A stretch of DNA of 49,758 nucleotides from Candidatus Moraniibacteriota bacterium. Lineage in GTDB: Bacteria > Patescibacteriota > Minisyncoccia > Moranbacterales > UBA9337. A model generated the notes under the pieces. The model worked only from the letters and a program-made list of their open reading frames with translations, was not told the origin of the DNA and searched no databases. The stretch is from positions 1 through 49,758 of the forward strand of contig JALNYX010000003.1 of NCBI GenBank assembly GCA_023229615.1. Direction: 5' to 3'. Positions 4,437 to 42,135 of the stretch are shown here, one piece after another (the stretch's first letter is position 1; every line of letters begins with the position of its first letter). A program made the translations under genes and the position numbers.

Positions 4437-5193
4437 ACAAAAAATCTTTCTGAAAAAATCCATCGAAAGCATTTTAAATCAAACATTTACTGATCTTGAG
4501 TTTATTATAATAGACAATAACAGCCCAGAGGAAAACTCTGCCCTATTGGATAGTTACGCAAAAAAAGATAATCGCATTATTATCATAAGAAACAAAACCA
4601 ATATAGGACTGACAAAATCACTAAATATAGCAATAAAAAAATCCCAGGGAGAATTTATCGCAAGAATGGATGGTGATGACATATCGCTTCCAGATAGACT
4701 CTCCGAACAACTATCATTTCTCAAAAAAAATCCAACCATTGATATCATTGGAGCTAATTGCAATTTTATAAACAAAAACGATGAAATAATTAAGAAAAAA
4801 ACGATCAAGCGACCATCTAATATAAAAACTAAACTATTTAAGGGAAATTTTTTTACCCACAGCACATTTTTTGGCAAAAGAAAAGCTTTCGAGGAATTGT
4901 ATAATGAAAACTTCAAAAGAGCCCAGGATTATGAATTCCTCCTTAGGTTGGCCGGAAAAGGGTACGAGATAGATTATCTAGAAGACATTTTGTTAAATTA
5001 CCGCATAAATAAAGATGGAGTATCATTTGTTAATTCAAAAGAACAGGAGCTATTCTCCCTAAAAGCAAGAATTATTGCTATACTTAATTATAATTATAAT
5101 CCACTCTTATTTCCTTATATACTAAAAGGAGCATTAAGCTTTTTACTTCCATGTAAATTAAAACATCTTATTAATTTTAAGGCACTGCTATGA
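4399..5193 (+). CDS. GT2 glycosyltransferase
   Basis: MPKISVIMAAWNE...IIIDNNSPEEN...RMDGDDISLPDRL. The ORF track starts at 4369, but Met 4399 or 4420 gives a normal overlap with the upstream gene. Confidence 0.8.
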   Translation: MPKISVIMAAWNEQKIFLKKSIESILNQTFTDLEFIIIDNNSPEENSALLDSYAKKDNRIIIIRNKTNIGLTKSLNIAIKKSQGEFIARMDGDDISLPDRLSEQLSFLKKNPTIDIIGANCNFINKNDEIIKKKTIKRPSNIKTKLFKGNFFTHSTFFGKRKAFEELYNENFKRAQDYEFLLRLAGKGYEIDYLEDILLNYRINKDGVSFVNSKEQELFSLKARIIAILNYNYNPLLFPYILKGALSFLLPCKLKHLINFKALL

Positions 5194-25866: not shown

Positions 25867-27516
25867 CTATTTAATCTTAAAGACTGTCATCGACTCAGAA
25901 TCATATTCTTTTTCGAAATAATCCGACGAATAAAGAGCGGAAAATTTCTCCCAATCATCCGTCTTAGCAACAACGAAATGAGACACTCCGGCACTCTTCC
26001 AAAATTCCCGGTCATCCGGAATTATCTCCCCTGAAAGCAACAAAACATGTTCATCCCAAATACTTTTTTCCGCTTCCAACAAAAGTCGGTTATCCATATT
26101 TTTTCCAGTAATCATTGTTTCCAGAAAAAAGGCATTAGCCGGATTAGCAACCATCGCTCTGTCGGCGAAATTCAATTCACAATACATATGCCAAGGCAAA
26201 AAAAGCACTTCATTTGTTTTAATATCCGCCTGAAGAACCGCCTCTGCCTCATACCAGCCCCGAGGATAATCATATGGCGCTATCTGACCATATGCCCCAA
26301 AAAGCAACGTACCCGCCCAGAGAAATGGAATAACTGCAACTGAAGCAGATGAGAAAAATCGCAAATAATTCTCTTTCTGAATATGCGCTATTTTCCCCAA
26401 ATACAAAACAACATAGGATATTCCCAATGGTGTCAAAAAAGCATAACTAAAGGCAATTATACCGGAGATTTTCTCCGTATCGCGCAATCCGCGAAAAAAA
26501 GGCAGCGTAGCGAAAAGAAAATCAATAATTGGACGAGTAAACGAATCGCCATAGCCAACAGAAAGCAAAAGAGCTGGAACAAAAACAACAGCTACTGCCC
26601 TAGCCAAAACATTTCTTCGACGAATTTCCATCAACGCCCCAATAAAAGAAAAAAACATTACCGCTAAAGCAACCATCCACCACCAAGAAAAGAAATCCTT
26701 AAATTCCAAAAAATTACTACTCCAAAATCCATACAACGCCAGCACATTGAAATAGATTCCAAAATTCGGATCAGGCAAAGTGGAAAAAGCTTCAAAATCG
26801 CCAAGAGTAATATTGGAGAAAGTCTGGGAAGAATCAAAAAATCCTGCCAGCCAGAAACCATTGACCGCAAAAAATATTGCCACTAATATAGTCATTTTCA
26901 AAAAAACATTCCTCCATCCTCCCGACTCAAAATTTTCAACACTATCAACTTTTGACTTTTCAGATTTTATAGACTTAACAATCCCATAAACCAGCAAAAA
27001 CCCAGAGGCGATATATGCCCAATGGATACTGACAATCGGATAAACAGAAAAAACCAAAGCGAAAGCGACGAATCGCCGCCAAGTCCGAAGTTCGAAATAA
27101 CGATCAAGAAAAAACACGCTTACAGGGAAAAAACCATATCCCAACATCACTATCCAATGTCCAGCCATCAAGCGCTCACAAACATATAGATTGAGCATAT
27201 ACAGCAATCCCGCTCCTGTGGCAAGCGAACGACTCATATATCGCAAAGAAAGTCGATACATTGCAATCCCAGGCAAAAACAAAACCCCTGCCAAAACTAT
27301 TTTTTGCAAAACTTCCGCTGAAAAAAAATGATGCAACAAGAGCAACACCATTTGAAGTGGAAACCCTGAATCAATTCCTTTTCGCGCGATATCAGAAAAA
27401 TCCATTCCTGGACCCCAAACCATATCAATCAAAAACACAAAACCCGACCCAAAAAAAGGAGCTACGATCGCCGCAGTCAAACCGGAGAATATTAAAATAG
27501 GATAATACTTTTTCAT
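25867..27516 (-). CDS. Polytopic membrane protein (GT-C/polymerase-like), unknown specificity
   Basis: 549 aa with more than 12 hydrophobic segments and a soluble C-terminal approx. 120 aa. ATGA-type overlap with the upstream 137-aa gene. Confidence 0.65.
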   Translation of the reverse strand: MKKYYPILIFSGLTAAIVAPFFGSGFVFLIDMVWGPGMDFSDIARKGIDSGFPLQMVLLLLHHFFSAEVLQKIVLAGVLFLPGIAMYRLSLRYMSRSLATGAGLLYMLNLYVCERLMAGHWIVMLGYGFFPVSVFFLDRYFELRTWRRFVAFALVFSVYPIVSIHWAYIASGFLLVYGIVKSIKSEKSKVDSVENFESGGWRNVFLKMTILVAIFFAVNGFWLAGFFDSSQTFSNITLGDFEAFSTLPDPNFGIYFNVLALYGFWSSNFLEFKDFFSWWWMVALAVMFFSFIGALMEIRRRNVLARAVAVVFVPALLLSVGYGDSFTRPIIDFLFATLPFFRGLRDTEKISGIIAFSYAFLTPLGISYVVLYLGKIAHIQKENYLRFFSSASVAVIPFLWAGTLLFGAYGQIAPYDYPRGWYEAEAVLQADIKTNEVLFLPWHMYCELNFADRAMVANPANAFFLETMITGKNMDNRLLLEAEKSIWDEHVLLLSGEIIPDDREFWKSAGVSHFVVAKTDDWEKFSALYSSDYFEKEYDSESMTVFKIK

Positions 27517-27926
27517 TTTTTCGACTTTCGATTTTCAATTTTAAACTCTATTATCTGCTTGACTACTCCGATAACTAAAAAGAAATATACCCAAACTGCC
27601 ACCTGTTCCGCCCAAGCCTCGCCGACCGGAAGAATGTTTCGATTAGCCAATGCCAGCAATATAGGAATAATCACCAATCCAACCAAAGCCGCTCCGATAG
27701 AAATTCGCGAATCCAAATTCCAAAAAACCAGCACGAAAAAAAACAGCCAGAAAAAAATTCCTTCCAAAGTAAAATTGGCAAAATAAAAAAGACCAAGAGC
27801 AATAATGAAAAAAAACGCTCCGCCCACTTTGTCCCGCCGGGTAGAATTTTTCACCGACAAAAAAAGTTTGCGAAAGAAATTCCCCGCATCTTCCGGCATA
27901 AAAATATAATCTTTCAATTTGAACAT
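27513..27926 (-). CDS. Small membrane protein (3-4 TM)
   Basis: 137 aa, hydrophobic. Coupled to the 549-aa gene. Confidence 0.55.
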   Translation of the reverse strand: MFKLKDYIFMPEDAGNFFRKLFLSVKNSTRRDKVGGAFFFIIALGLFYFANFTLEGIFFWLFFFVLVFWNLDSRISIGAALVGLVIIPILLALANRNILPVGEAWAEQVAVWVYFFLVIGVVKQIIEFKIENRKSKK

Positions 27927-27997: not shown

Positions 27998-28033
27998 TGT
28001 GTCATTTAAATACGGCCGACGTAAGATGACACA
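27998..28033 (+). repeat. 36-bp composite palindrome, copy 1 (A.C type)
   Basis: TGTGTCATTTAAATACGGCCGACGTAAGATGACACA. It abuts the stop codon (28034-28036) of the PaaX-like gene. Confidence 0.9.
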
Positions 28034-28594
28034 TTAAATCAATTTGGAGAAATGCTTTTTCAAGACCGCTTCATTATCAATCTTTGTTGCCGTAATCACT
28101 CGGACATATCGTTCAGCACCATAAAGCGCTGTCAATTCCAAAATGGATTTTTCGCAAGGGTACGGCGACACAAACACACTATGTTGCAATTTGCGAAATT
28201 TGAGATTATGCAAATGTTCGCGCAATATATCTCGAAAAAGCCGATCTTTTTCAGGAACATCAAAAAGCACCACTCGCCACTTGCTATCCCAACGTTTCGG
28301 TTTTTTAAACATTATAGATCCACCGAGAAAATCCAACTTCCTGGCTTGTATTTTTCCCCTTGCAGTAAGAACCAACTCAAAAGATCCATCAGGAAGCTCA
28401 TTTTCTTTGATTAGTTTTTCTCTGGAAAGGGTGCGAATTGAACGGTTAAAATTTCGCTGATCAATATTTTTCCACTCACGTCGCACTTGACGCAATGTTT
28501 TGAAGTATTGCCTGGGAGATGAAGCACAACCAAGCGCCACTCCGCCCATAAGCGTAAGAAGGATTTTTTGCTGTACTGATCCGAATTTATACAT
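28034..28594 (-). CDS. PaaX-like small regulator (winged-helix N-terminus plus Cas2/VapD-like ferredoxin-fold domain)
   Basis: WRVVLFDVPEKDRLFRDILREHLHNLKFRKLQHSVFVSP matches the PaaX middle-domain pattern (W..V.FD.PE..R..R..LR..L...F..LQ.SV). N-terminal helix-rich segment. Confidence 0.55.
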   Translation of the reverse strand: MYKFGSVQQKILLTLMGGVALGCASSPRQYFKTLRQVRREWKNIDQRNFNRSIRTLSREKLIKENELPDGSFELVLTARGKIQARKLDFLGGSIMFKKPKRWDSKWRVVLFDVPEKDRLFRDILREHLHNLKFRKLQHSVFVSPYPCEKSILELTALYGAERYVRVITATKIDNEAVLKKHFSKLI

Positions 28595-28602
28595 ATTAAC
28601 AA

Positions 28603-28713
28603 TGTATCATAATTCCACGACCGACGGAAGATGACACAAAAAACAGGGATTACATACTATACTATTGGATTAAAAAATGTGTCATTTAGATACGGCCGAC
28701 GGTAGATGACACA
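28603..28713 (+). repeat. Two 36-bp palindromes: copy 2 (28603-28638, hybrid B.C type) and copy 3 (28678-28713, A.C type), separated by a 39-nt linker
   Basis: TGTATCATAATTCCACGACCGACGGAAGATGACACA and TGTGTCATTTAGATACGGCCGACGGTAGATGACACA. The linker is homologous to 32503-32541. Confidence 0.9.
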
Positions 28714-28714
28714 A

Positions 28715-28750
28715 ATAGAAGATTCTGTGAAGACTTCTATTTTAATTTTA
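28715..28750 (+). terminator. Hairpin plus T-tract (terminator-like), copy 1
   Basis: atagaag-N12-cttctat followed by tttaatttta. A near-identical copy lies at 32715-32750. Confidence 0.4.
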
Positions 28751-28795
28751 TCGCATCCTCCACTGCCCTTGCTAATTTCCTTGCCTTCCTTCTTT

Positions 28796-29011
28796 TCACA
28801 AAATTTTACCCTGTTTAATTTTTCTTTTATTTAACATGGCATAACCCAAATACCCAAGACAGCCAAACAATGTTGTTCCACTTATTAGCAAGCCTAAATA
28901 GAACCATCTTTGGGGGAAGAATTCGATGGTCATTTCTTCAATGTCATAACTACCGTCATCATTCAAAATACAGCCCGTACTTTCAACTCTATAACTTTCT
29001 ACTTTATACAC
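28796..29011 (-). pseudogene. Displaced paralogous copy of the C-terminal membrane-anchor segment of the 1044-aa protein
   Basis: Encodes ...NDDGSYDIEEMTIEFFPQRWFYLGLLISGTTLFGCLGYLGY..., compared with LNADGSYDIEMTIEFFPQRWFYLGLLISGTTLAGCLGYLGY at 32816-33010. A 29-nt identical core lies at 28896-28924 = 32940-32968. Confidence 0.7.
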
Positions 29012-29014
29012 TTT

Positions 29015-30046
29015 TCAACTTTTTCTTTTATTTTTTCTTCCTTCCAAATATTTTTTCACTTCCCGATCAAAATCAGAAATATAATTTTTATCTTGCTCAA
29101 TCCTAAATTTTTCATACTCTCCCAACGCAAGCGCTTTTGCAACATCATGACTAATTTTCCCGGCGTTCATCAAAATTTCATATTCACTGAATTTGAGAAA
29201 TGCATTAAGTTTCTGAACCCAATCCTTCATAAACATGGCTCGACCACGTGCCGCTTGCATTTCAGCATAATCCAAATACATATTACCGATGCGGTTTAAA
29301 TGCATCAATTCTTTTTTATCCAAATAATTTTTAGCGATGATTGTATCACTCGGCATGATTTTTCCATTCGGCGATCTCTGCCATGAAGTTAATCCCATTT
29401 TTTCTTTTTCACTATTAGCCCGATCTGAAATGATTTCTGCTGCAGTTTTGCCAGTGATAGCAAAATGAAGCTTATTCTGTACGGTAGCAAAAAATTCTTT
29501 ACTCTCACGCGCTTTTGGAGAATAATCAATAGCGGTTACATAAATATCAGTGATTTTTTGATAAATTCTGCGCTCGCTGGTGCGAATATCCCTAATTTCC
29601 TCATAAAGATCATCAAAATATCTGGCGCTAAAACGAGACCCATATTTCATTCGGTTAGAATCCAACGCATAACCTTTGTGAATATAATTTTTTAAAACTC
29701 CGGTTGCCCATTGGCGAAATTCCGTACCTCGCTCGGAATTTACGCGATAGCCGACAGCGATAATCACTTCAAGGCTATAAAAAGCAAGTTTTCTGGAAAT
29801 TTCTCGTTTTCCTTCTTTTTGAACTGCCGAGAATTCCTCGGTAGTTGAATTTTTATCAAGCTCATTTTCTTTGTAGATATTTTTCAAATGAAGTGATATG
29901 TTATCACTTGTGCAATCAAAAAGCTCGGCCATTTTCTTTTGCGTAAGCCAAATATTTTCTTCTGCGTAAAGCACCTCAATATTCACCGAACCTTCGGATG
30001 ATTGATAAAATGCGATTTGATTGTCAGGTATTTTTTTTATTGCCAT
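29015..30046 (-). CDS. rhuM: RhuM family protein (Fic/DOC-related virulence-associated family)
   Basis: ENIWLTQKKMAELF...YSLEVIIAVGYRVNSERGTEFRQWATGVLKNYIHKGYA are characteristic RhuM N-terminal and central motifs. 343 aa. Confidence 0.85.
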   Translation of the reverse strand: MAIKKIPDNQIAFYQSSEGSVNIEVLYAEENIWLTQKKMAELFDCTSDNISLHLKNIYKENELDKNSTTEEFSAVQKEGKREISRKLAFYSLEVIIAVGYRVNSERGTEFRQWATGVLKNYIHKGYALDSNRMKYGSRFSARYFDDLYEEIRDIRTSERRIYQKITDIYVTAIDYSPKARESKEFFATVQNKLHFAITGKTAAEIISDRANSEKEKMGLTSWQRSPNGKIMPSDTIIAKNYLDKKELMHLNRIGNMYLDYAEMQAARGRAMFMKDWVQKLNAFLKFSEYEILMNAGKISHDVAKALALGEYEKFRIEQDKNYISDFDREVKKYLEGRKNKRKS

Positions 30047-30200
30047 ATATTTAAAAATGTTTACAACTATGCCTTAATTATATACAAACAATACATGAAT
30101 ATCAATTTGTTTTAATTACTTCTTTATTACACTAAATCCATGTCAGAATAGTTACCTACTAACATAAGGATTACCGCTCTCTAACACACTCCCCTTTAAA

Positions 30201-30307
30201 TTTTTTGTTTTCAATTTTGATTACACTGATATTATACCACTGGATGTTTTTGCGTCAAATATTTCGTGTTTTATTCGGTGGAGTCAGATTATTGTTGGAT
30301 TAAAAGA
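30201..30307 (-). repeat. 107-bp promoter module, copy 1 (96% identical to 31955-32061)
   Basis: 4 mismatches in 107 nt by hand alignment. Ends in the TTGTTGGATTAAAA linker that precedes palindrome copy 4. Confidence 0.85.
30231..30258 (-). promoter_or_regulatory. Near-consensus promoter driving rhuM
   Basis: Minus strand reads TTGACG-N16-TATAAT with extended -10 TGGTATAAT. Confidence 0.6.
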
Positions 30308-30343
30308 TGTGTCATTTAGATACGGTCGACGGGAGATGACACA
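30308..30343 (+). repeat. 36-bp composite palindrome, copy 4 (A.C type)
   Basis: TGTGTCATTTAGATACGGTCGACGGGAGATGACACA, located between the divergent rhuM and zeta-toxin promoters. Confidence 0.9.
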
Positions 30344-30382
30344 TTTTCCGAGGAAGTGTTAATGGGAGGGGGTTAATACAAA

Positions 30383-30411
30383 TTGTCATCTTAATAAAAA
30401 AATGCTAAAAT
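30383..30411 (+). promoter_or_regulatory. Promoter of the zeta-toxin gene; predicts a leaderless mRNA
   Basis: TTGTCA-N17-TAAAAT with TGc extended -10. The -10 ends 6 nt before the ATG at 30418. Confidence 0.55.
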
Positions 30412-30417
30412 GCAAGC

Positions 30418-31128
30418 ATGAAACAAGCTGAAAACACCAAAATAGCTGAGGATGCTAAAGCTTTCATCAAAAAGAAAAAACGCGACCTCATAGATAAATT
30501 TGCCGACCTTGAAAAATTTCCTCCATCAGAAAAGCCATTTTCGTTTTTTATGGCTGGTTCTCCTGGCGCGGGAAAAACTGAATTCTCAAAAAGGCTCATA
30601 GAATCAATGATGCCTACGCCCATCGTAAGAATAGACGCCGACGAGATAAAAGAATTCATTCCTCAATATACAGGCAAAAACTCTGACATCGTACAGGGAG
30701 CGGCTTCAATTGCGGTGGATAATTTAAATTACTACGCCCTAAAACACAACCAAAATTTAATCATGGATGGCACGTTTGCACATTACGGGGTGGCACGCAA
30801 AAATATAATGAATTGTCTGAATAAAAAAAGGCAGATTAGCGTATTTTATATATACCAAGATCCTGTCGTCGCTTGGGATTTCACCCGGAAGCGCGAGAAG
30901 CTTGAGGGTCGCTATGTTCCAAAAGAAGCCTTTATCGAAGCATTTTTTAAGGCGAAAGAAAACGTACAGTTGATCAAGGAGGAGTTTGGCGAAAAAATAG
31001 AGCTCAACCTGATCATAAAAAATGACAAGAATGAAGACGAAGAAATCAAATCTAATATTAGCTCGAATATTGACGATTTTGCAATAATCGCATATAATAA
31101 GGAATCTCTAAATACAATCCTATGCTGA
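30418..31128 (+). CDS. Zeta-toxin family P-loop kinase
   Basis: Walker A FFMAGSPGAGKTEF followed by VRIDADE. 236 aa, typical zeta/PezT size and layout. Confidence 0.8.
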   Translation: MKQAENTKIAEDAKAFIKKKKRDLIDKFADLEKFPPSEKPFSFFMAGSPGAGKTEFSKRLIESMMPTPIVRIDADEIKEFIPQYTGKNSDIVQGAASIAVDNLNYYALKHNQNLIMDGTFAHYGVARKNIMNCLNKKRQISVFYIYQDPVVAWDFTRKREKLEGRYVPKEAFIEAFFKAKENVQLIKEEFGEKIELNLIIKNDKNEDEEIKSNISSNIDDFAIIAYNKESLNTILC

Positions 31129-31319
31129 AAAAAATAATTTCAAAATTTTCTCATAATAAAAAATCTCCAAAAAAAGAGGTCAATTTTTTCGATTTGTCCC
31201 AAGTTGAAAAAGAGCAGCTCATAAAAAAAGCTGCCAGACTTTCGTCCCAAGATCAAAAAGACCTTTTGAAAGAATACGATCGCAAATTCGGCGATCTGCA
31301 AACCAACTCTTGCAAATAA
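31122..31319 (+). CDS. Small Lys-rich protein overlapping the toxin stop (ATGCTGA); possible cognate partner
   Basis: 65 aa. 7-nt overlap with the toxin gene. A strong terminator follows. Confidence 0.45.
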   Translation: MLKKIISKFSHNKKSPKKEVNFFDLSQVEKEQLIKKAARLSSQDQKDLLKEYDRKFGDLQTNSCK

Positions 31320-31350
31320 ACAAGCGCGCGCCGCATTATCTCCCTTTCAA

Positions 31351-31380
31351 AAAATCCTGCCATAGTGGCAGGATTTTTAT
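31351..31380 (+). terminator. Rho-independent terminator of the toxin operon
   Basis: aaaatcctgcca-tag-tggcaggatttttatt. Confidence 0.75.
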
Positions 31381-31411
31381 TGTACCATTCTGAATTTGCG
31401 CTTATCGATAA

Positions 31412-31513
31412 TGTATCATAATTCCACGGCCGACGGTAGATGACACAAAAGATAGGGATTGTGTTTGTTGGGTTGAATGTGTCATTTAGATACGGTCGAC
31501 GTAAGATGACACA
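31412..31513 (+). repeat. Two 36-bp palindromes: copy 5 (31412-31447, hybrid B.C type) and copy 6 (31478-31513, A.C type)
   Basis: TGTATCATAATTCCACGGCCGACGGTAGATGACACA and TGTGTCATTTAGATACGGTCGACGTAAGATGACACA, with the 30-nt linker aaagatagggattgtgtttgttgggttgaa. Confidence 0.9.
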
Positions 31514-31547
31514 AATAGAGATGATGGGTAGTTTGATTGTGGGGTTG

Positions 31548-31664
31548 CTATGTTGTTTCTATCTTCCGCTTTTCCTCGCCCTGCCGAAGCCTTTGGCGAA
31601 GGCGGGTGCGGCGGTTAATGAGGTCGTATCCGAGATAACTTAGACAGCCAAATAATGTTGTGTC
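31548..31664 (-). pseudogene. Third remnant of the membrane-anchor/tail coding segment
   Basis: Hand translation gives DTTLFGCLSYLGYDLINRRTRLRQRLRQGEEKRKIETT*, compared with GTTLAGCLGYLGYDFVKRRKRRAGERERERVGDME* (intact gene) and GTTLFGCLGYLGYAMLNKRKIKQGKIL* (28796 copy). Confidence 0.6.
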
Positions 31665-31954
31665 TCAGTTAAAATTGCATCTAGATTATAGTGTTTTATA
31701 TCACGAGCAACTTCCCTTGAAGATTCCTTTTGAACTATCCGGAAATTCCGGATAGTTGAATTTTCATCCAATTCTTGCTCTAAATAAATATTAACCAGAT
31801 GCTCATTGACTGTGCGAACATTAACATTAAATAGTTCGGCGATTAATTTTTGCGTCAACCAAACATTCTCATCTTCAATTCTAACGTGGATTTTTTGTTT
31901 ATCGCCAAAAGATTGATAAATGGTAATTTGCTGTTTTTTTGAGTGCTTTTTCAT
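31640..31954 (-). pseudogene. Truncated RhuM-like gene (N-terminal approx. 95 aa only), running out of frame into the anchor remnant
   Basis: ENVWLTQKLIAELF...KHYNLDAIL aligns with the first third of the 343-aa RhuM protein, then ends TETQHYLAV*. Confidence 0.65.
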
Positions 31955-32061
31955 TTTTTTGTATTCAATTTTGATTACACTGATATTATACCACTGGATG
32001 TTTTAGCGTCAAATATTTCGTGTTTTATTCGGTGGAGTCAGATTATTGTTGAATTAAAAAA
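31955..32061 (-). repeat. 107-bp promoter module, copy 2
   Basis: 96% identical to 30201-30307. Here it directly abuts the start codon at 31954. Confidence 0.85.
31985..32012 (-). promoter_or_regulatory. Near-consensus promoter (duplicate of 30231-30258)
   Basis: Minus strand reads TTGACG-N16-TATAAT with TGGTATAAT. Confidence 0.55.
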
Positions 32062-32713
32062 TGTGTCATTTAGATACGGCCGACGTAGGATGACACAAAT
32101 TATAGATGGGCCGGGATTGAGTGTTGATAAAATACAGGGATTGTGTTTGTTAAATTGAGAATGTGTCATTTAGATACGGCCGACGGTAGATGACACAAAT
32201 GTTGAATGTGTCATTTAGATACGGCCGACGTAGGATGACACAAATTATAGGGATTGTGTTTGTTGGATTAAAATAGGCTTGTTGTGTCATTTAGATACGG
32301 CCGACGTAGGATGACACAAATTATAGATGGGCCAGGATTGAGTGTTGATAAAATACAGGGATTGTGTTTGTTGGATTAAAATAGGCTTGTTGTGTCATTT
32401 AGATACGGTCGACGTAGGATGACACAAAAGATAGAGATTGTGTTTGTTGGATTAAAATAGGCTTGTTGTGTCATTTAGATACGGCCGACGTAGGATGACA
32501 CAAAAAACAGGGATTACATACTATACTGTTGGATTACAAAATGTGTCATTTAGATACGGCCGACGGGAGATGACACAAAAGATAGAGATAGTGTTTGTTG
32601 AATTGAGAATGTGTCATTTAGATACGGCCGTGGAATTATGACACAAAAAATAGGGATTGTGTTTGTTGAATTGAGAATGTGTCATTTAGATACGGTCGAC
32701 GGGAGATGACACA
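32062..32713 (+). repeat. Array of nine 36-bp composite palindromes (copies 7-15) with recurrent linkers
   Basis: Copies at 32062, 32162, 32207, 32283, 32391, 32467, 32542, 32610 (hybrid A.B' type) and 32678. Linkers are 64, 9, 40, 72, 40, 39, 32 and 32 nt and share ...GGGATTGTGTTTGTTGGATTAAAA.... Confidence 0.9.
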
Positions 32714-32714
32714 A

Positions 32715-32750
32715 ATAGAAGTTTTTGTGAAGACTTCTATTTTAATTTTA
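32715..32750 (+). terminator. Hairpin plus T-tract (terminator-like), copy 2
   Basis: atagaagt-N10-acttctat followed by tttaatttta. It lies 65 nt beyond the stop of the 1044-aa gene, so it may act bidirectionally. Confidence 0.4.
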
Positions 32751-32815
32751 TCACCAACCCTTTCGAGAAGCAAAAAAACTTTTTTTTATTTCTACTTCTG
32801 TTTCTGTTTCTGTTC

Positions 32816-35800
32816 CTATTCCATATCACCCACCCGCTCTCGCTCCCGTTCTCCCGCCCTGCGCTTTCTTCGTTTTACAAAGTCATAACCCAAATAGCCA
32901 AGACAACCTGCGAGAGTTGTGCCGGAAATTAACAATCCCAAATAGAACCATCTTTGGGGGAAGAATTCTATGGTCATTTCGATGTCATAACTTCCATCAG
33001 CATTCAGCTTGCAGGCACTATTCAATTCATCACTTTCCGACTTTTGACTTTTGACTTTTGACTCACACAATTGTTCCGGTTCAACAAACCAGCCATTCAA
33101 AAATCCATTCAATTCAAAATGCTTGTCATCCGAAATCCGATCAGGCTTTACCCAAGGAATCCACGACGCGATAAATCGCGAGTATAAAGTCGAAAGTCGA
33201 AAGTTAAAAGCATTTGAGTCAACGATGCCAATCTTATTATTAGTAAGTTGTGCCTGCCACTGCGGATGAAAACTCTCACTCATCGCCAAATAAAACGGCG
33301 TAGTCGCCCCCTTGATATGAACTAATTTTTTGGTAGGATTCAATAAATCAAATGTTACTTCCTTAGGATCGACAAAATTAGTCTGAGGATCACTCACGAG
33401 ATAGTAATGATTTTGAATGTCAGGAAGCTCAATTAAATGAAAATTATCGTAAAGTGTCCTAATATTGGTCTTTTCATCTTGACTGAAAGAATAAACTGCA
33501 AGTGATGCTTCTTCCACACCATTTGGAATTGAGATGATTTTAGAAAAATGATGCCACTCATTATTTGTTATTGGAAGTCGTTTACTGATGTAGTTATTCT
33601 TACCAAAACCCAAGTAAAATGCTGCGATTTTTCCATCATCACTCTTATAATCAAAAGATAATAAATATGAAGCGTTACTTTTTAAATAAATTTTTCCCGT
33701 AGAAGTACACGCATTATGACGAATCGAGGATAATTCTAAAGAATTTAGACCATCCGTCCTATCGCTTGATAATTTCATTGAAATTAAGGGATTGTCATCG
33801 TAAGCATTGCAATCACTCACTGCTTTCTGCCACATTCCATCTTCAAAAGAAAAATTTAAAATATCATTTTTATAACTAAAATTATCATGTTTGTATGTAA
33901 TTCCCAATGAACTACCTGATAAAACATCAATAGCACTGTAATAATCCCTAATAATATCATCATCTTTTTCTAAAATTTTAATTTGAGATTGCAGTATCTC
34001 TATTTCTGCTGTTATATTATTAGAATATAAATAAGTTTTTCCATTTGTTGGAATATCCCTAAGAACAATTTCTTTATTTTGTATTTCTTCTGGTGTTAGA
34101 AATTCAAATAATCTAGTTATTTTTTGTGTTGGAAATTCAAATTTTTTTTCGGAAACAATAAAATCTTCTTTATCGCTAATGGTATCTAAAACAAATTCAA
34201 ATTTTTTATTAATATTTAAATATGAATCATATTGTGTCAAATCTAAAAATGACCTAAAATAATTTTTATAATTACTATTCTCATACACAACCAATTCCGT
34301 GGTTCCAATATCAATTCGCTTTAAATATGATAATTTGTCAAGATTATCAATATACCATTGACGGATATTAGGATTTTCCCTACCTCCATAATCTATAAAA
34401 AAATTATCATCATTACTATAATCGCTCAACGGCACTACGATATACTTAATAGACCCTGCATCCAAAAGATGATCTGAAAAATATTTATTAAATGGATCAA
34501 TGATTTTTAAAAATCTATCTCTCGGATGAATATCACCATCAACAAAATTTTTCCACATTTTGTCAGCTATATTAACACCAACTAATCGTGGGTGTTTGTC
34601 TGTATATGTGGCCCATTTACTTGTATGCGGAACCCAATATGTTCGAAAAAAATATGACTGAGAGTTTATAAATTCATTGTAGATTTTATAATCATCTGGT
34701 ATTTGCCTTGGAACAAACAATGTTTCAACACCTCCAGAAAAAAATGACCTTGTGTTTCCTAAAAATATAAATACCACTATAATAGTTAATATAATTCCGA
34801 CATTCTTTATAACTTTATTTTTATTCAATGTTACATAATAAACAAAACTACTAATTAAAACTGAGTAGCCAATGGCTATAAGAAAATAAAACTTACTTGC
34901 CTCTCTAAAAACTTGAAATCCTGGAATATGGGTAAATAGCCATTTATACAGCTCTGGAAAAGGGCTTACAGCTTGTTTAGATAATAAAATCCCAAAAATT
35001 GATATGATGGAGAAAAAAAGAACAAGACGATTTTTTTTCCCCAAAATTAAACCACAAAAAGATATTACAGGAACCAAGAAAAAATAAATTGGGATATGTT
35101 GTGTTTCAAAAACTGCAATTTTACCTCCTGTCCACCAAGGATGAAATAACGCAATAGACCTTGTAAGATTATAAAAACTACTCCCCCATAATTCTCTGCT
35201 AAGTATGGCATTTTCTTGACCACCACCGCTCATAATCATGCCCAGTATCCAGTAAATACTCAAAAAAAGAAATACCGAAAAAGAAACTATTGAATAAATA
35301 ATTATTGAAAAATCAAAATTTTCAAATAATTTAAAAATTGTATAGATAGCTAGTACCACTGAGACAATTAAGGCAACCCTAGGTTCATAAGAACTCAAAC
35401 CAAATAAGGTTAAGGCAGATACAATACAAAATAAAATTTTCTTTTCGTTTAACGCTTTTATAAAAAATAATATTGCAAATGGTGCTAATGCAAATGCAGT
35501 TGCTAATGTTATGTGTCCTGTTTGAAGTGTGAGTATGTAGCTATTAAAAGAATATACACCAGCACCAATGCAAGCAGCTAATACATTTTTAAATATATAT
35601 CTGTTTAAAAAATATGCCGAGAGTGGTGTAAATATAACGATTGGGAAAAAATATTGTATTCTTTCGATTATCTCCCATCTTAAAAAATTATTTAATGCTA
35701 AAACACCAGATAATGCATACGTTGGAGCTTGCCCGACATCAGAAAGATGCCTACCAAAATTTTGATCAGATAACCATAGCGAAAAATAGTTTATCCTTAG

Positions 35801-39030: not shown

Positions 39031-39142
39031 AGTCTATAATGTCTTAATGTCTATAAAGTCAAAAGTCGGAATATAGTCGAAAGTCTATAATGTCGTAATG
39101 TCGACTTTACGGACTCGATAACTTTACGGACTCGATAACTTT
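39031..39142. repeat. Cryptic GTC-periodic simple repeat, followed by a perfect 17-bp tandem duplication spanning the stop codon of the GT4 gene
   Basis: The words tataatgtc, ttaatgtc, tataaagtc, aaaagtc, gaaagtc, tataatgtc and gtaatgtc fill 39031-39103. actttacggactcgata occurs at 39104-39120 and 39121-39137, plus a partial third copy. Confidence 0.8.
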
Positions 39143-40282
39143 CTTGAAATCTTCATAACTTTTATCAAAATTAACATCCTTACTCCAAGCATGAGCGGCT
39201 CTTCTATTTTTTTCATATTCATCTCCATCAGAAAGCAACTTCACGATATTTTCTGCTAAATTTTCCGGAGTATTTTCCCGACATATCAAACCCGTTTCCC
39301 CATCCCGCACACTATCACGCAAACCATCCACATCATATACCACTGCCGGAGTACCCTGACTATTGGCTTCCGTCACCACCAACCCCCAACCCTCCTTTAT
39401 CGAAGTCGCACAAATCAAATGCGATTTTCGCATCAACTCCTCCCGCTCCTCATCAGAAGTCCTACCCAGCACACTGATAGAATCTTTGAATTCAGATTTT
39501 TCTATCATTGCCAGCACCTTTTTTCCAAAACTATCACTAGCATCGCCGGAAACCAACAACCTCAAATCCTTGATCTTTCCCTTGGCGATTTCAAAAGCCC
39601 TCACGATTTGATCCGTCCGCTTCATCGCCCGCACCGCACCCAGAGAAAGAACAGTCGGCATTTCATACTTCGCGGACTTTTGACTTTCAAATTCCAACTC
39701 ATCTATCGGCGCAATAATAGTTCCCTCACTGATAATATGAATATTCTCTTTTTTAAATCCGTATTTCAACAAATCCTTTTTCGTACTTTCCGAAACCGTA
39801 ATCACCTGCGGTGAGTCAAAAGTCTTGAAAGTCCATAAAGTCGAAAGTTGGAATCCGGAACTCAGTAACCACAAATACACAGGCTCCAATAAATATCCCA
39901 TCAAACTAAACGGAAAAAACAACTGATAAAACCAAATCTCCCGGCACAACTGATGAATAAAAATAATATTCCTTTCTTTAACATAAAATCTGGCAAAAAA
40001 AGGAGCTGTATTGATTTCATCAATTACCAAATCCGCTTGCCCTCTCAAATTTTTCAAATAATATATCATCGCCCATAAATATACCGTGTAGCGATTTCCC
40101 ATACGGATTATTTTATAACCATCCACCATTTCCACCTCCTTGCACCCGACAAAACTACCCACCAAAAAAGTAAGCGTATGACCATCCGCCACCAAGCGTT
40201 TCGCCAACTCCTCATTCACCACTTCCGCCCCGCCAGCCAAAGGGTTTTTCAAATCTTTCCATGTGAACCACAAAATTTTCAT
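39107..40282 (-). CDS. GT4 glycosyltransferase
   Basis: MKILWFTWKDLKNPLAGGAE N-terminus. SIKEGWGLVVTEANSQGTPAVVYDVDGLRDSV. The ORF-track start at 40297 runs into the inverted repeat, so Met 40282 is preferred. Confidence 0.85.
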   Translation of the reverse strand: MKILWFTWKDLKNPLAGGAEVVNEELAKRLVADGHTLTFLVGSFVGCKEVEMVDGYKIIRMGNRYTVYLWAMIYYLKNLRGQADLVIDEINTAPFFARFYVKERNIIFIHQLCREIWFYQLFFPFSLMGYLLEPVYLWLLSSGFQLSTLWTFKTFDSPQVITVSESTKKDLLKYGFKKENIHIISEGTIIAPIDELEFESQKSAKYEMPTVLSLGAVRAMKRTDQIVRAFEIAKGKIKDLRLLVSGDASDSFGKKVLAMIEKSEFKDSISVLGRTSDEEREELMRKSHLICATSIKEGWGLVVTEANSQGTPAVVYDVDGLRDSVRDGETGLICRENTPENLAENIVKLLSDGDEYEKNRRAAHAWSKDVNFDKSYEDFKKVIESVKLSSP

Positions 40283-40290
40283 AAATGTCT

Positions 40291-40774
40291 GAACCACTGA
40301 TTCTCACGTGATTTTATTGATTGCACGTGATTAGAGTTTCGTTATTTTACATATCTCTTAACTTCTAAACTTCTAGCACCAAAATTTATCAGCAAACCCA
40401 GCTTAACCTTATAGGCTTCGATGTAGTTTATTAGCTGAGCGATGTTCACATCTTCTAGTTTTGTTATCGCCTTCAACTCAACCATAACATCTCTGTCAAC
40501 CAAAAAATCAACTCTTCTAGTGCCGACCAATTGTTCTTCGTAGAAAATATCCATTTCTTTTTCACGTTCAAACTTCAATCCCTCTTTTTCAAATTCAATC
40601 GCCAATGATCTTTGATAGATAACCTCCTGAAAACCATTGCCCAGGGTACGATGCACCTTCTGCGCGCATTTGATAATCTTTCCCGTCACATCTGACTTAT
40701 AATATTTTTCATCTATATAATTATCCATAAAAATCATGTGTACTTATGTGTAAATCAGTGAGAATCAGTGGTTC
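40291..40774 (-). mobile_element. 484-bp cassette: GxxExxY gene bounded by 17-bp perfect inverted repeats
   Basis: GAACCACTGATTCTCAC at 40291-40307 and its exact reverse complement at 40758-40774. The match extends to 23 of 24 positions with one gap. Confidence 0.45.
40342..40737 (-). CDS. GxxExxY family protein (PD-(D/E)XK nuclease-like fold)
   Basis: LGNGFQEVIYQRSL (GxxExxY), RVDFLVDRDVMVELKA (D...ExK) and LINFG motifs. 131 aa. Confidence 0.8.
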   Translation of the reverse strand: MIFMDNYIDEKYYKSDVTGKIIKCAQKVHRTLGNGFQEVIYQRSLAIEFEKEGLKFEREKEMDIFYEEQLVGTRRVDFLVDRDVMVELKAITKLEDVNIAQLINYIEAYKVKLGLLINFGARSLEVKRYVK

Positions 40775-40779
40775 TGACT

Positions 40780-42135
40780 TTATCTGTGGTTCACGATCTC
40801 CCAATGCCCGCCTTTGTCTGGACCGATTCTTTTGATGAGTCCTTTCTCTTTCAACCTTGCAATATCTCTCTTGATGGTTTTTTCATTTACCTGCAACTCT
40901 TTCGCAATTTCAGAAATAGCAATATCATTTTTGCTTTCTACTAAACGCATAATCAGATCAGCCCTTTCAGGGACATTTTCAGGGACATTTTCAGGGACAT
41001 TTTCAGGGACATTTTCAGGGACATTTTTCCTGCGTTTCCAAAAAACAATCACAAAAGCCCCTGATCTTTCAGAAAAATCAGGCATCTCATTGCCATTCTT
41101 TTCACACTCTTCAATTATCCGTTGGAAGCCTGCTCCCCAATTTTCTACCAATTCAATTTGATGAAAAATTTCCACCAACTTTTTGTTTCTCGGGATAGAT
41201 CTGTTTTCAGTGAGAATACTTTTTATATTAATCTCTTTAGGTAAAAGCCCTGGACTCCAAATTTCAAGAGAATTATCAAAAATTCTAATTTGAATATTCC
41301 CCGGATCATTATAGTCCCGATGAATAAGCGCATTAATGACTGCTTCGCGCAGAGCTAAGAGTGGATAATCCCAAACTTCATCTCTTTTTGGCTTTCCAGT
41401 CATGACAAATTCCGTATTGATGTGTCGCTTGATGAAATCCATCGTTTCGTCAACGGCGCGAATAATGTTTCCGTCAAATTCTTTTTCGTCCAAAAATTTG
41501 GCAACACTTTCCCCTTTAAACCTTGCCGCCTTCACAATGACATTGTGCATCTCAGTATTGTTTTTTACAAAACAAAGATAGCCAGCATTGGTAATTTTAT
41601 TTTTTACTATCAACCCAATCTTTTTCAAAAAATCAATTGAGGAAACGACCTTAAGCTTGTAATATTCTTTGTTTACCCTCTCAATAAGTCTATCATCAAA
41701 TTCGACTTTTTTAGAATCTTTTTCCAAATACATTTTGTCGAAATCCGATAAGGCATATCTTTTTATTAACTCCCTCACTTCCGTTTGAGACATTTTTTGG
41801 TTGGTTTTTCCGACTCTCATATATGCCCTATCAAAAGCAAACACGGGCTTATTGTCAGATTCCGAGACTTCAATCTCCACGATTTCACCCAAGCCGAAAG
41901 TTTTAACATTTATGGATGGGTACAGAATTGGATCAGTATGATTTTTTATTTTATTGGCGAAATCTTCAATAGTGCTTTTTCCGAGCTGAATTTCACTAGC
42001 CACGCCATCATCTTTCATACCGATAACAACCTTTCCGCCTTTTCTATTGGCAAAGGCGCAAAGAGCAACGATCGCCTCTTTCCATTCAGAAAATGAAGTT
42101 TTTAATTCAATTTTTTCAGATTCTTTTAATTTCAT
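40780..42135 (-). CDS. AlbA_2 (Schlafen-like) plus HATPase_c_4 plus C-terminal wHTH protein (family often annotated as a RecG-like putative DNA-binding/ATP-binding regulator)
   Basis: ESEKIELKTSFSEWKEAIVALCAFANRKGGKVVIGMKDDG (AlbA_2). LREAVINALIHRDY. C-terminal ISEIAKELQVNEKTIKRDIARLKEKGLIKR. Confidence 0.8.
   Translation of the reverse strand: MKLKESEKIELKTSFSEWKEAIVALCAFANRKGGKVVIGMKDDGVASEIQLGKSTIEDFANKIKNHTDPILYPSINVKTFGLGEIVEIEVSESDNKPVFAFDRAYMRVGKTNQKMSQTEVRELIKRYALSDFDKMYLEKDSKKVEFDDRLIERVNKEYYKLKVVSSIDFLKKIGLIVKNKITNAGYLCFVKNNTEMHNVIVKAARFKGESVAKFLDEKEFDGNIIRAVDETMDFIKRHINTEFVMTGKPKRDEVWDYPLLALREAVINALIHRDYNDPGNIQIRIFDNSLEIWSPGLLPKEINIKSILTENRSIPRNKKLVEIFHQIELVENWGAGFQRIIEECEKNGNEMPDFSERSGAFVIVFWKRRKNVPENVPENVPENVPENVPERADLIMRLVESKNDIAISEIAKELQVNEKTIKRDIARLKEKGLIKRIGPDKGGHWEIVNHR
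40968..41027. repeat. Perfect 12-bp tandem repeat x5 (cagggacatttt) encoding (ENVP)5 in the linker before the wHTH
   Basis: Five identical units counted base by base. In-frame (12 nt). Confidence 0.95.

Follow-up and report, generated by a model that had tools for sequence, protein, structure and literature searches.

Palindromic 36-bp sites that accompany a short PaaX-type gene in Patescibacteria, and their probable role as its operators

Regulators such as DeoR, GalR and LacI, and repeats of the ParR-parC type, provide known cases of paired or arrayed operators that work through looping or cooperative binding. The target of PaaX in E. coli has the form TGATTC-N27-GAATCA, and the protein obstructs RNA polymerase at its own promoter, which is thereby repressed (PMC9493321). 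Here we describe fifteen copies of a 36-bp palindrome in a 49,758-nucleotide stretch of DNA from a Candidatus Moraniibacteriota bacterium (contig JALNYX010000003.1), the whole of which is called the window below, together with the adjacent gene at 28034-28594 for a short protein of the PaaX type, mini-PaaX. From comparative sequence analysis, we consider it likely that the 15 palindromes are DNA-binding sites, that is operators, of this mini-PaaX. An earlier note on the same DNA had listed an operator array of the adjacent winged helix-turn-helix (wHTH) regulator as the third of its alternatives, and this is the one favoured by the evidence. A regulator with its binding sites is in itself of a familiar kind; what is unusual is their multiplication in a variable patch of a candidate phyla radiation (CPR) bacterium.

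The sites and their companion gene

The window was searched with the pattern TGTRTCAT-N7-CGNNCG-N7-ATGACACA, using 100 shuffles as a control. Exactly 15 sites were found (chance expectation 0.00), starting at 27998, 28603, 28678, 30308, 31412, 31478, 32062, 32162, 32207, 32283, 32391, 32467, 32542, 32610 and 32678; because the arms are palindromic, every site matches on the other strand too. The arms are TGTGTCAT, replaced by TGTATCAT at 28603 and 31412, and the centres are CGGCCG (10 copies), CGGTCG (four) or CGACCG (one). The left N7 block is TTAGATA, TTAAATA or AATTCCA, and the right block is either ACG followed by KDRG or TGGAATT. These parts make up discrete half-sites, namely A (TGTGTCAT-TTAGATA-CGG), B' (CCG-ACGKDRG-ATGACACA), C (TGTATCAT-AATTCCA-CGG) and C', the reverse complement of C, which are paired as A/B' in 12 of the 15 copies, as C/B' at 28603 and 31412, and as A/C' at 32610; the sequence of one site, as an example, is TGTGTCATTTAGATACGGCCGACGTAGGATGACACA. 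All 15 copies share one polarity, and the A halves are preceded by TTG(G/A)ATT(A/G)A(A/G)A. Outside 27998-32713, the rest of the window holds neither a copy of the site nor any ATGACACA 8-mer.

The description given in the earlier note is therefore borne out in most respects: all 15 positions, the modular make-up of arms, core and discrete N7 blocks, the single orientation with a GGATT/GAATT-type linker ahead of A-type copies, and the lack of copies in the remaining 45 kb were reproduced, as were a copy directly after the stop codon of the PaaX-like gene (27998-28033) and a copy between the divergent rhuM and zeta-toxin promoters (30308). Its statement that the inner loop is unpaired holds for this lineage, where hairpin folding of the C/B' copies is no better than that of shuffles (z = 0.66 and -1.25) and that of the A/B' copies is moderate only (z from -1.2 to -4.3, by copy and strand), but not elsewhere, where the full-length 36-mer frequently forms a perfect palindrome such as TGTATCATAATTCCACGGCCGTGGAATTATGATACA (C/C'), with a hairpin energy of -21.9 kcal/mol.

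Some smaller features of the sites were also noted. In the window sites and in the comparison loci generally, only the middle two bases of the centre vary (CG-GC-CG, CG-GT-CG, CG-AC-CG and CG-AT-CG), a pattern of C-to-T transitions in GGCC, on one strand or the other, that may reflect tolerated positions or cytosine deamination. Hand inspection of the spacings between sites gave no clear pattern of helical phasing. Avoidance of a restriction site at CGGCCG was considered and rejected, since there is no depletion: four copies lie elsewhere in the window, no fewer than the ~1.4 estimated by hand from composition.

The gene beside the sites is the following:

28034-28594, minus strand: mini-PaaX gene, 186 amino acids, identified with Pfam, NCBIfam and Foldseek

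The protein matches Pfam PF20803 PaaX_M (9e-22) and, weakly, Cas2, while NCBIfam gave matches to PaaX and Cas2 that were both weak. The predicted fold combines an N-terminal winged helix with a subsequent Cas2-like ferredoxin fold (PaaX_M), and the top Foldseek matches were E. coli PaaX (8a39), Rv0674 (3kfw) and then Cas2 proteins; a sequence search of the PDB with mini-PaaX gave no match. Neither Pfam nor NCBIfam detected a PaaX_C domain, the protein stopping after the Cas2-like domain, and a Pfam scan of the window open reading frames (ORFs) found no paa genes. Lacking both the C-terminal ligand domain and a paa context, mini-PaaX is best classed as a distinct short subfamily of PaaX type, and literature searches returned no published description of such a subfamily or of its sites. 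We collected 331 homologues, of which the best 120 span 63-100% identity; exact look-up of the protein found one 1.2-kb contig only. Some orthologues are labelled 'CRISPR-associated endonuclease Cas2' in public records (P0023, P0079, P0108). Locus L074 carries a second, partial regulator copy (4769-4972, 61% identity) with its own upstream site, and the sole match in a protein scan of viral contigs was a partial homologue with a site after the gene on an IMG/VR 'viral' contig (L120).

A pattern scan of 185,579 genomes matched 30 stretches, ~28 of them real, including eight loci with a mini-PaaX gene beside the site. The matching genomes were mostly Patescibacteria (Moranbacteria and relatives), and strict-pattern matches were also found in several bins labelled Bdellovibrionales, one Parachlamydiales bin and one Nitrosospira bin. 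Genomes had 2-6 copies by the strict pattern, which would miss diverged copies. The corresponding scan of viral contigs gave one chance match, in GC-rich DNA and identical to an Azospirillum match. We then assembled 80 metagenomic loci with the genome and contig loci into a set of 74 distinct orthologous genes (Patescibacteria, mostly Moranbacteria). The palindromes linked to these orthologues are 30-36 bp long with the centre ACG-RY-CGT. They lie upstream of the gene in 48/74 orthologues, most often with a gap of 8 bp to the ATG (19/48), and downstream in 51/74, with a gap of 0-3 bp to the stop codon in 27/51; both gene ends carry a palindrome in 32/74. In 650 kb of orthologue loci there were 133 palindromes centred on CG-RY-CG, compared with none after shuffling, and these clustered at the ends of the regulator gene. 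In most lineages the regulator gene is accompanied by just 2-4 sites, and tandem sets of that size up- or downstream of it are common; the 15 copies of the window are an extreme. The 36-bp element is a companion of the mini-PaaX gene family-wide across Patescibacteria, an association observed directly. It is thus not confined to an accessory patch, as the earlier note had it, and the statement that it belonged to no described repeat family was inaccurate in overlooking this partnership.

In another lineage (L037-L039, 1-12021), scpA and scpB are separated by a ~10-kb block that contains two DNA methyltransferases, GmrSD, a MazE-like gene and NUDIX. The regulator gene lies at the margin of this block, and the flanking sites have diverged to CACTCACTCAACGT-CGGCCG-TGGAAGAGTGATG.

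Promoter overlap and recognition of the arms

The site just upstream of the regulator gene coincides with a probable promoter:

28603-28638, no strand assigned: site S2 (C/B'), ending 8 bp from the regulator ATG (28594), putative operator over the regulator's own promoter

The arm of S2 proximal to the gene, with two further nucleotides, forms TGATACATT, an extended -10 element (positions 28601-28609 in plus-strand numbering) that ends 6 nt before the ATG. The same arrangement recurs among the orthologues. In 50/73 a TAnnnT motif is found upstream of the start codon at a distance of 4-9 nt (mode 6), and in 33/73 it is preceded by TGn, as in an extended -10, compared with 10.7% and 0.9%, respectively, at random positions. 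The -10 hexamer is made of the terminal bases of the proximal site arm and two more bases (ATGATACA+AT; TGATACATT in the window). This overlap of site and promoter motif was observed directly. With the -10 hexamer inside the proximal arm and immediately before the ATG, the regulator gene appears to be leaderless, with its promoter inside the site, and the position of the site implies that the gene is autorepressed, the sign of the regulation being our inference.

The centre ACG-RY-CGT is nearly invariant among lineages, whereas the arms vary and include TGTATCAT, TTAGCAT, GACACC and CGACAT. Arm changes are concerted, the left arm changing with the right and the upstream site with the downstream one. 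We aligned the proteins and scored each protein column against each site position by mutual information. The highest value among all pairs, 1.05 bits, was obtained for residue 48 and arm base 5. Residue 48 is the N of QRNFNRS, at the start of a predicted helix (46-58), and the two characters correspond as follows:

residue 48 N: arm base 5 T in 40/42 loci
residue 48 S: arm base 5 A in 10/13 loci
residue 48 T or A: arm base 5 G in 8/8 loci

Most loci with S at residue 48 and A at arm base 5 have loci with N and T as their closest relatives, and on a tree built by the unweighted pair group method with arithmetic mean there were ~15 independent changes of each character. The co-variation in specificity was seen directly in the alignments and is the signature expected of direct readout by a recognition helix. 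By this co-variation mini-PaaX recognises the 36-bp sites, while actual binding to them is inferred.

On these grounds we propose the following mechanism. A mini-PaaX dimer, joined via the Cas2-like domain, would set its two winged helices on the outer arms TGTRTCAT/ATGAYACA, 20 bp apart, and would touch the invariant ACG-RY-CGT centre near the dyad. Bound to S2, it would cover the extended -10 and switch off the leaderless transcript. The remaining sites, after the stop codon, in upstream tandems and on both sides of accessory operons, could act by cooperative looping or as roadblocks and would repress or insulate the rhuM, zeta toxin and orf137/MmpA-like units. Looping, roadblock and insulation are the weakest step of this account. 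Upstream of the orf137/MmpA-like operon, sites recur in four genomes, those of the window, L040, L041 and L103, with the regulator 5 kb away in L103, and regulation of the operon downstream of the first site by that site is probable. Elsewhere, sites are found beside or around genes for a Type ISP restriction enzyme, a DNA methylase, Fic/DOC, DUF3800, a reverse transcriptase, DUF5674 and RhuM-Fic, and they also adjoin housekeeping genes.

The accessory patch and its history

The other features of the patch, with sites numbered in order along the window and given without strand, are:

27998-28033: site S1, starting at the base after the regulator stop codon, 71 bp upstream of the orf137/MmpA-like operon
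28678-28713: site S3, 75 bp from S2 start to start, beside a hairpin at 28716-28746
30308-30343: site S4, between the divergent putative promoters of rhuM and zeta
31412-31447: site S5 (C/B'), promoter-type copy attached to the second-regulator remnant
31374-31411, minus strand: the remnant, 38 bp, ~10 first codons and the 8-bp leader of a second mini-PaaX copy (repeat family D7)
31478-31513: site S6, found by the pattern
32062-32713: nine-site array S7-S15 (starts 32062, 32162, 32207, 32283, 32391, 32467, 32542, 32610, 32678)
30195-30307, minus strand: promoter module of the rhuM cassette, TTGACG-16-TGgTATAAT (repeat family D5)
28796-30046, minus strand: cargo genes rhuM (29015-30046; Pfam RhuM 4e-104) and orf71 (28796-29011)
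30418-31319, plus strand: cargo genes for zeta toxin (30418-31128; Pfam Zeta_toxin 1e-39) and a 65-amino-acid ORF (31122-31319), then a hairpin (31345-31372)
31640-31954, minus strand: truncated rhuM (N-terminal 104 amino acids) behind the duplicated promoter module
25867-27926, minus strand: orf137 and a 549-amino-acid MmpA-like membrane protein, downstream of S1, with their own putative promoter (27967>27940)
32678-33000, minus strand: direct-repeat partner of 28678-29011 (repeat family D6, 79%), comprising a site, a hairpin and a surface-protein 3' end
28656-28685, 32520-32549, 30288-30315 and 32042-32069, minus strand: sigma-70-like matches, by consensus score only

The last of these arise where the site-arm ATGACA and a linker TATAGT or AATAAT score as a sigma-70-like promoter in the direction of the regulator gene, and are consensus matches only.

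Duplication is directly evident throughout the patch. A ~300-bp direct repeat (28678-29011 and 32678-33000) brackets it, the rhuM promoter module recurs with 93% identity at 31949-32061 (D5) before the truncated rhuM, and 31374-31460 is 80% identical to 28565-28651 (D7). The small gene orf71 is a duplicated C-terminal membrane-anchor fragment of a 1044-amino-acid surface protein, with which it shares the motif DGSYDIE..TIEFFPQRWFYLGLLISGTTL (28796-29011, 32816-33000; L118 3218-3688), and is probably a partial gene that stems from the duplication on either side of the patch. In L118, two sites and then the regulator follow the surface-protein 3' end, an order that looks like the uninterrupted state. 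The linkers of the nine-site array are related to each other, 9-72 bp long and of the form AAnnATAGrGATTGTGTTTGTTGrATTrArA. They consist of the flank after the 3' site of the regulator joined to the flank before its 5' site, and from this composition the array units look like site-plus-flank units from which the gene has been lost.

A strain variant, L040, is 97.7% identical to the window over the regulator region and has an orthologous array of at least four sites and no zeta cassette. In L040 a Bro-N/DinD-like gene (367-1191) replaces the window rhuM (29015-30046) with the same promoter module and orf71, and we read this difference as a gene swap in a fixed expression slot. Exact-protein look-ups of RhuM and the zeta toxin found no other strain contexts on record. 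We suggest that duplication of site-plus-flank units in this lineage, together with their recombination at short homologies, would have given rise to the 15 copies while accessory cassettes (rhuM, zeta toxin, Bro-N-type) were inserted into an original junction of surface-protein gene, site(s) and regulator.

Several repeats elsewhere in the window were recorded in passing. The gene for a Schlafen AlbA_2/HATPase_c_4/HTH protein (40780-42135, minus strand) contains a perfect 12-bp tandem repeat, TTTCAGGGACAT x5.2, at 40965-41027; the repeat preserves the reading frame and may be a tract of variable length or a product of the assembly. With a PDDEXK_3 (PD-(D/E)XK nuclease) gene, this Schlafen AlbA_2-HATPase_c_4-HTH gene makes up a second, small accessory or defence-like insert (40342-42135), in the glycosyltransferase locus and without 36-bp sites. 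The first ORF (214-1206) has 132/264-bp repeats, 77-89% identical, at 617-1196; they encode GDWD..DEIGVFRPST.TFY units, and Pfam detects a divergent InlB B-repeat at the N-terminus only. A perfect 17-bp repeat (x2.3) is present at 39104-39142, at the 3' end of a glycosyltransferase gene (39107-40297), and GACTTTT x3.6 at 33039-33063, near the 3' end of the 1044-amino-acid gene.

Competing explanations and comparison with described systems

A number of observations weigh against the view that the palindromes are mini-PaaX operators. Except for S2, the window sites lie upstream of putative promoters (rhuM 30258>30231, zeta 30383-30411, orf137 27967>27940) and not on them, and the nine-site array is ~50-700 bp from the nearest one. 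The site after the regulator stop codon often faces a convergent gene and so would not be the operator of a downstream promoter. The co-variation speaks for recognition and is silent on use, as a protein binding the ends of a mobile unit would be expected to show the same. Confidence in the AlphaFold2 model of mini-PaaX is moderate (predicted local distance difference test score, pLDDT, 69.7), and the neighbourhood of the gene is not syntenic between lineages. The window contains the second-regulator remnant and hybrid half-sites. Finally, compared with L040 it has an extra 2.3 kb, from site 32610 (S14, the A/C' hybrid) to site 30308, with both endpoints inside sites. Given these endpoints, the sites would have served as recombination substrates, for which a dedicated site-specific enzyme does not seem to be required.

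The foremost rival explanation is that the sites are CG-RY-CG crossover points at cassette boundaries, used by a trans-acting Xer-like recombinase or by the Cas2-fold protein so that site-gene-site cassettes are shuffled. If true, this would be a new cassette-shuffling system. The three half-site types that recombine (A/B', C/B', A/C'), the sites on both sides of rhuM and zeta in the window, of RhuM-Fic in L076 and of the DUF5674 pair in L019, the site abutting the stop codon even before convergent genes, the second-gene remnants in the window (31374-31411) and L074, and the non-syntenic position of the regulator gene all fit, and site s4 of L040 is the product expected of recombination of S14 with S4, deleting 2.3 kb. 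However, the S14/S4 junction lies within an identical stretch of at least 18 bp, so ordinary short-homology recombination explains it equally well; the replacement of rhuM by the Bro-N gene ends in the promoter module and orf71, outside the sites; the ~300-bp direct repeat around the patch is typical of duplication; and in most lineages the few sites around the regulator gene are the only ones. A Pfam scan of the ORFs of the 49.7-kb window detected no recombinase, integrase or transposase, and we know of no catalytic role for the mini-PaaX protein family. We saw no evidence for a new recombination system and regard this explanation as unlikely. In a variant of it, cassettes bounded by sites would be marked by the Cas2-fold protein, which might also assist in cutting or synapsing them, and CPR bacteria would shuffle defence and toxin cassettes, as well as the regulator gene, at the CG-RY-CG core without an integrase. 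The footprints of such activity would be the hybrid half-sites, the arrays of solo sites, the gene remnant, the stop-abutting site and the strain indel that ends in two sites; we hold this variant to be slightly less probable still.

The dif-like, Xer-dependent reading preferred in the earlier note belongs here as well. Like dif or pdif sites, the palindromes have an arm-6 bp centre-arm layout and border accessory modules with no recombinase nearby, and the lack of a local recombinase that the note remarked on was confirmed for tyrosine and serine recombinases (Pfam, ORFs of the 49.7-kb window). The 36-bp site with its bipartite half-sites differs from them, and its copies are direct, not alternating as in pdif. 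With 15 direct-orientation copies in 4.7 kb and pairing around one gene in 32/74 orthologues, not one copy per replicon, dif/pdif was rejected: the window sites pair around the regulator, overlap its promoter, share one orientation and have arms that co-vary with the recognition helix, and the rhuM/Bro-N swap did not occur at sites. Integron attC sites, which have the structure R''/L''-L'/R', paired RYYYAAC...GTTRRRY, a length of 57-141 bp and IntI nearby, were rejected too: GTTGGAT/GTTGAAT is present in the linkers, but paired RYYYAAC is not, and no integrase was found among the window ORFs.

A still less probable explanation is that the sites are selfish hairpin palindromes of the kind of repetitive extragenic palindromes (REP) or bacterial interspersed mosaic elements (BIME), spread by a REP-associated protein, the flanked gene then being the analogue of a domesticated REP-associated tyrosine transposase (RAYT). 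As in REP/BIME-RAYT systems, palindromes of 30-36 bp, often perfect and stable as hairpins (-21.9 kcal/mol), flank one conserved gene and occur also singly or clustered in intergenic DNA, and the solo-site-plus-flank units of the array resemble gene-less derivatives. The flanked protein, however, is a wHTH plus Cas2-like protein and not an HUH/Y1 transposase; copies are few (2-6 strict-pattern sites per genome) and of one orientation in clusters; the inner blocks are unpaired in the window, with C/B' copies folding no better than shuffles and A/B' copies moderately; and the arm doubles as a -10 box, a promoter element, at a fixed distance from the ATG. As the flanked gene is not a RAYT, the REP/BIME alternative raised in the earlier note is an analogy only.

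Least probable is an element that acts at the RNA level, as terminators, small RNAs or guide arrays like those of clustered regularly interspaced short palindromic repeats (CRISPR) or tandem interspaced guide RNA (TIGR) systems that partner the Cas2-like protein. TIGR units consist of two 14-nt box C-9 nt spacer-box D intervals (36-nt contiguous or stem-loop) with a Nop-domain Tas gene adjacent, and they occur in CPR bacteria (TIGRFinder preprint). The 36-bp length, equal to that of a CRISPR repeat or a dual-repeat tigRNA, the terminal dyad symmetry, the 32-40-bp intervals in part of the array, the Cas2-fold gene beside the array in a CPR bacterium, the public naming of some orthologues as 'Cas2' and the T-runs after several copies on the gene-sense strand favour such an element. 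We very much doubt it, as the 'spacers' are 9-72 bp long and repeat each other, cas1, effector and Nop/Tas genes were not found with Pfam among the window ORFs, and the same sites bracket the gene in most lineages. The sites gave no Rfam match at gathering thresholds, and arm mismatches of G-T and A-C type on the sense strand (32/40 upstream, 45/33 downstream) showed no G-U bias. Together with the protein-DNA co-variation, this upholds the earlier preference for a DNA site recognised by a protein over a structured RNA. Rejected individually were an intrinsic terminator (a T-run after only 10/51 downstream sites, no G-U bias), a CRISPR array (linkers that are mutually similar and of variable length, no cas genes in the window beyond the Cas2-like domain) and TIGR-Tas (20 nt between arms and linker-separated units misfit; no Nop domain among window ORFs). 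The combination of a Cas2-fold gene and a 36-bp array is nevertheless an annotation trap that can lead to false CRISPR or TIGR calls in CPR genomes.

Taken as the operators of mini-PaaX, the sites offer a testable regulator-operator pair for Moranbacteria and relatives with a readable code (residue 48 N/S/T versus arm base T/A/G) and an indication that the regulator is expressed as a leaderless transcript. To our knowledge, almost nothing is known about transcriptional regulation in these bacteria. The position of the regulator amid toxin, RhuM/Fic, Bro-N and restriction-type genes makes it a candidate for controlling or insulating the accessory and defence genes of reduced genomes.

The closest described system is PaaX, the phenylacetyl-CoA-responsive repressor of the phenylacetate catabolon in E. 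coli and Pseudomonas, with which mini-PaaX shares the winged-helix plus Cas2-like core. Both have sites of two short inverted arms with a long spacer (TGATTC-N27-GAATCA in E. coli, TGTRTCAT-N20-ATGAYACA in the window), the window arm contains TGATAC, and the occupation and repression by E. coli PaaX of its own promoter has a parallel in the window site that overlaps the putative promoter of the regulator. In contrast to PaaX, mini-PaaX has 186 amino acids, no PaaX_C ligand domain and no paa genes around it; its sites have an additional invariant centre, ACG-RY-CGT, and are found at both gene ends and as arrays that can reach nine copies; the genes around the regulator are of accessory or defence type; and the TGATAC half-site of the window points away from the dyad, opposite to that of E. 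coli. In having multiple identical sites tens to hundreds of bp apart around the unit that would be controlled, the window resembles the DeoR, GalR, LacI and ParR-parC systems, which provide an analogy for the mechanism.

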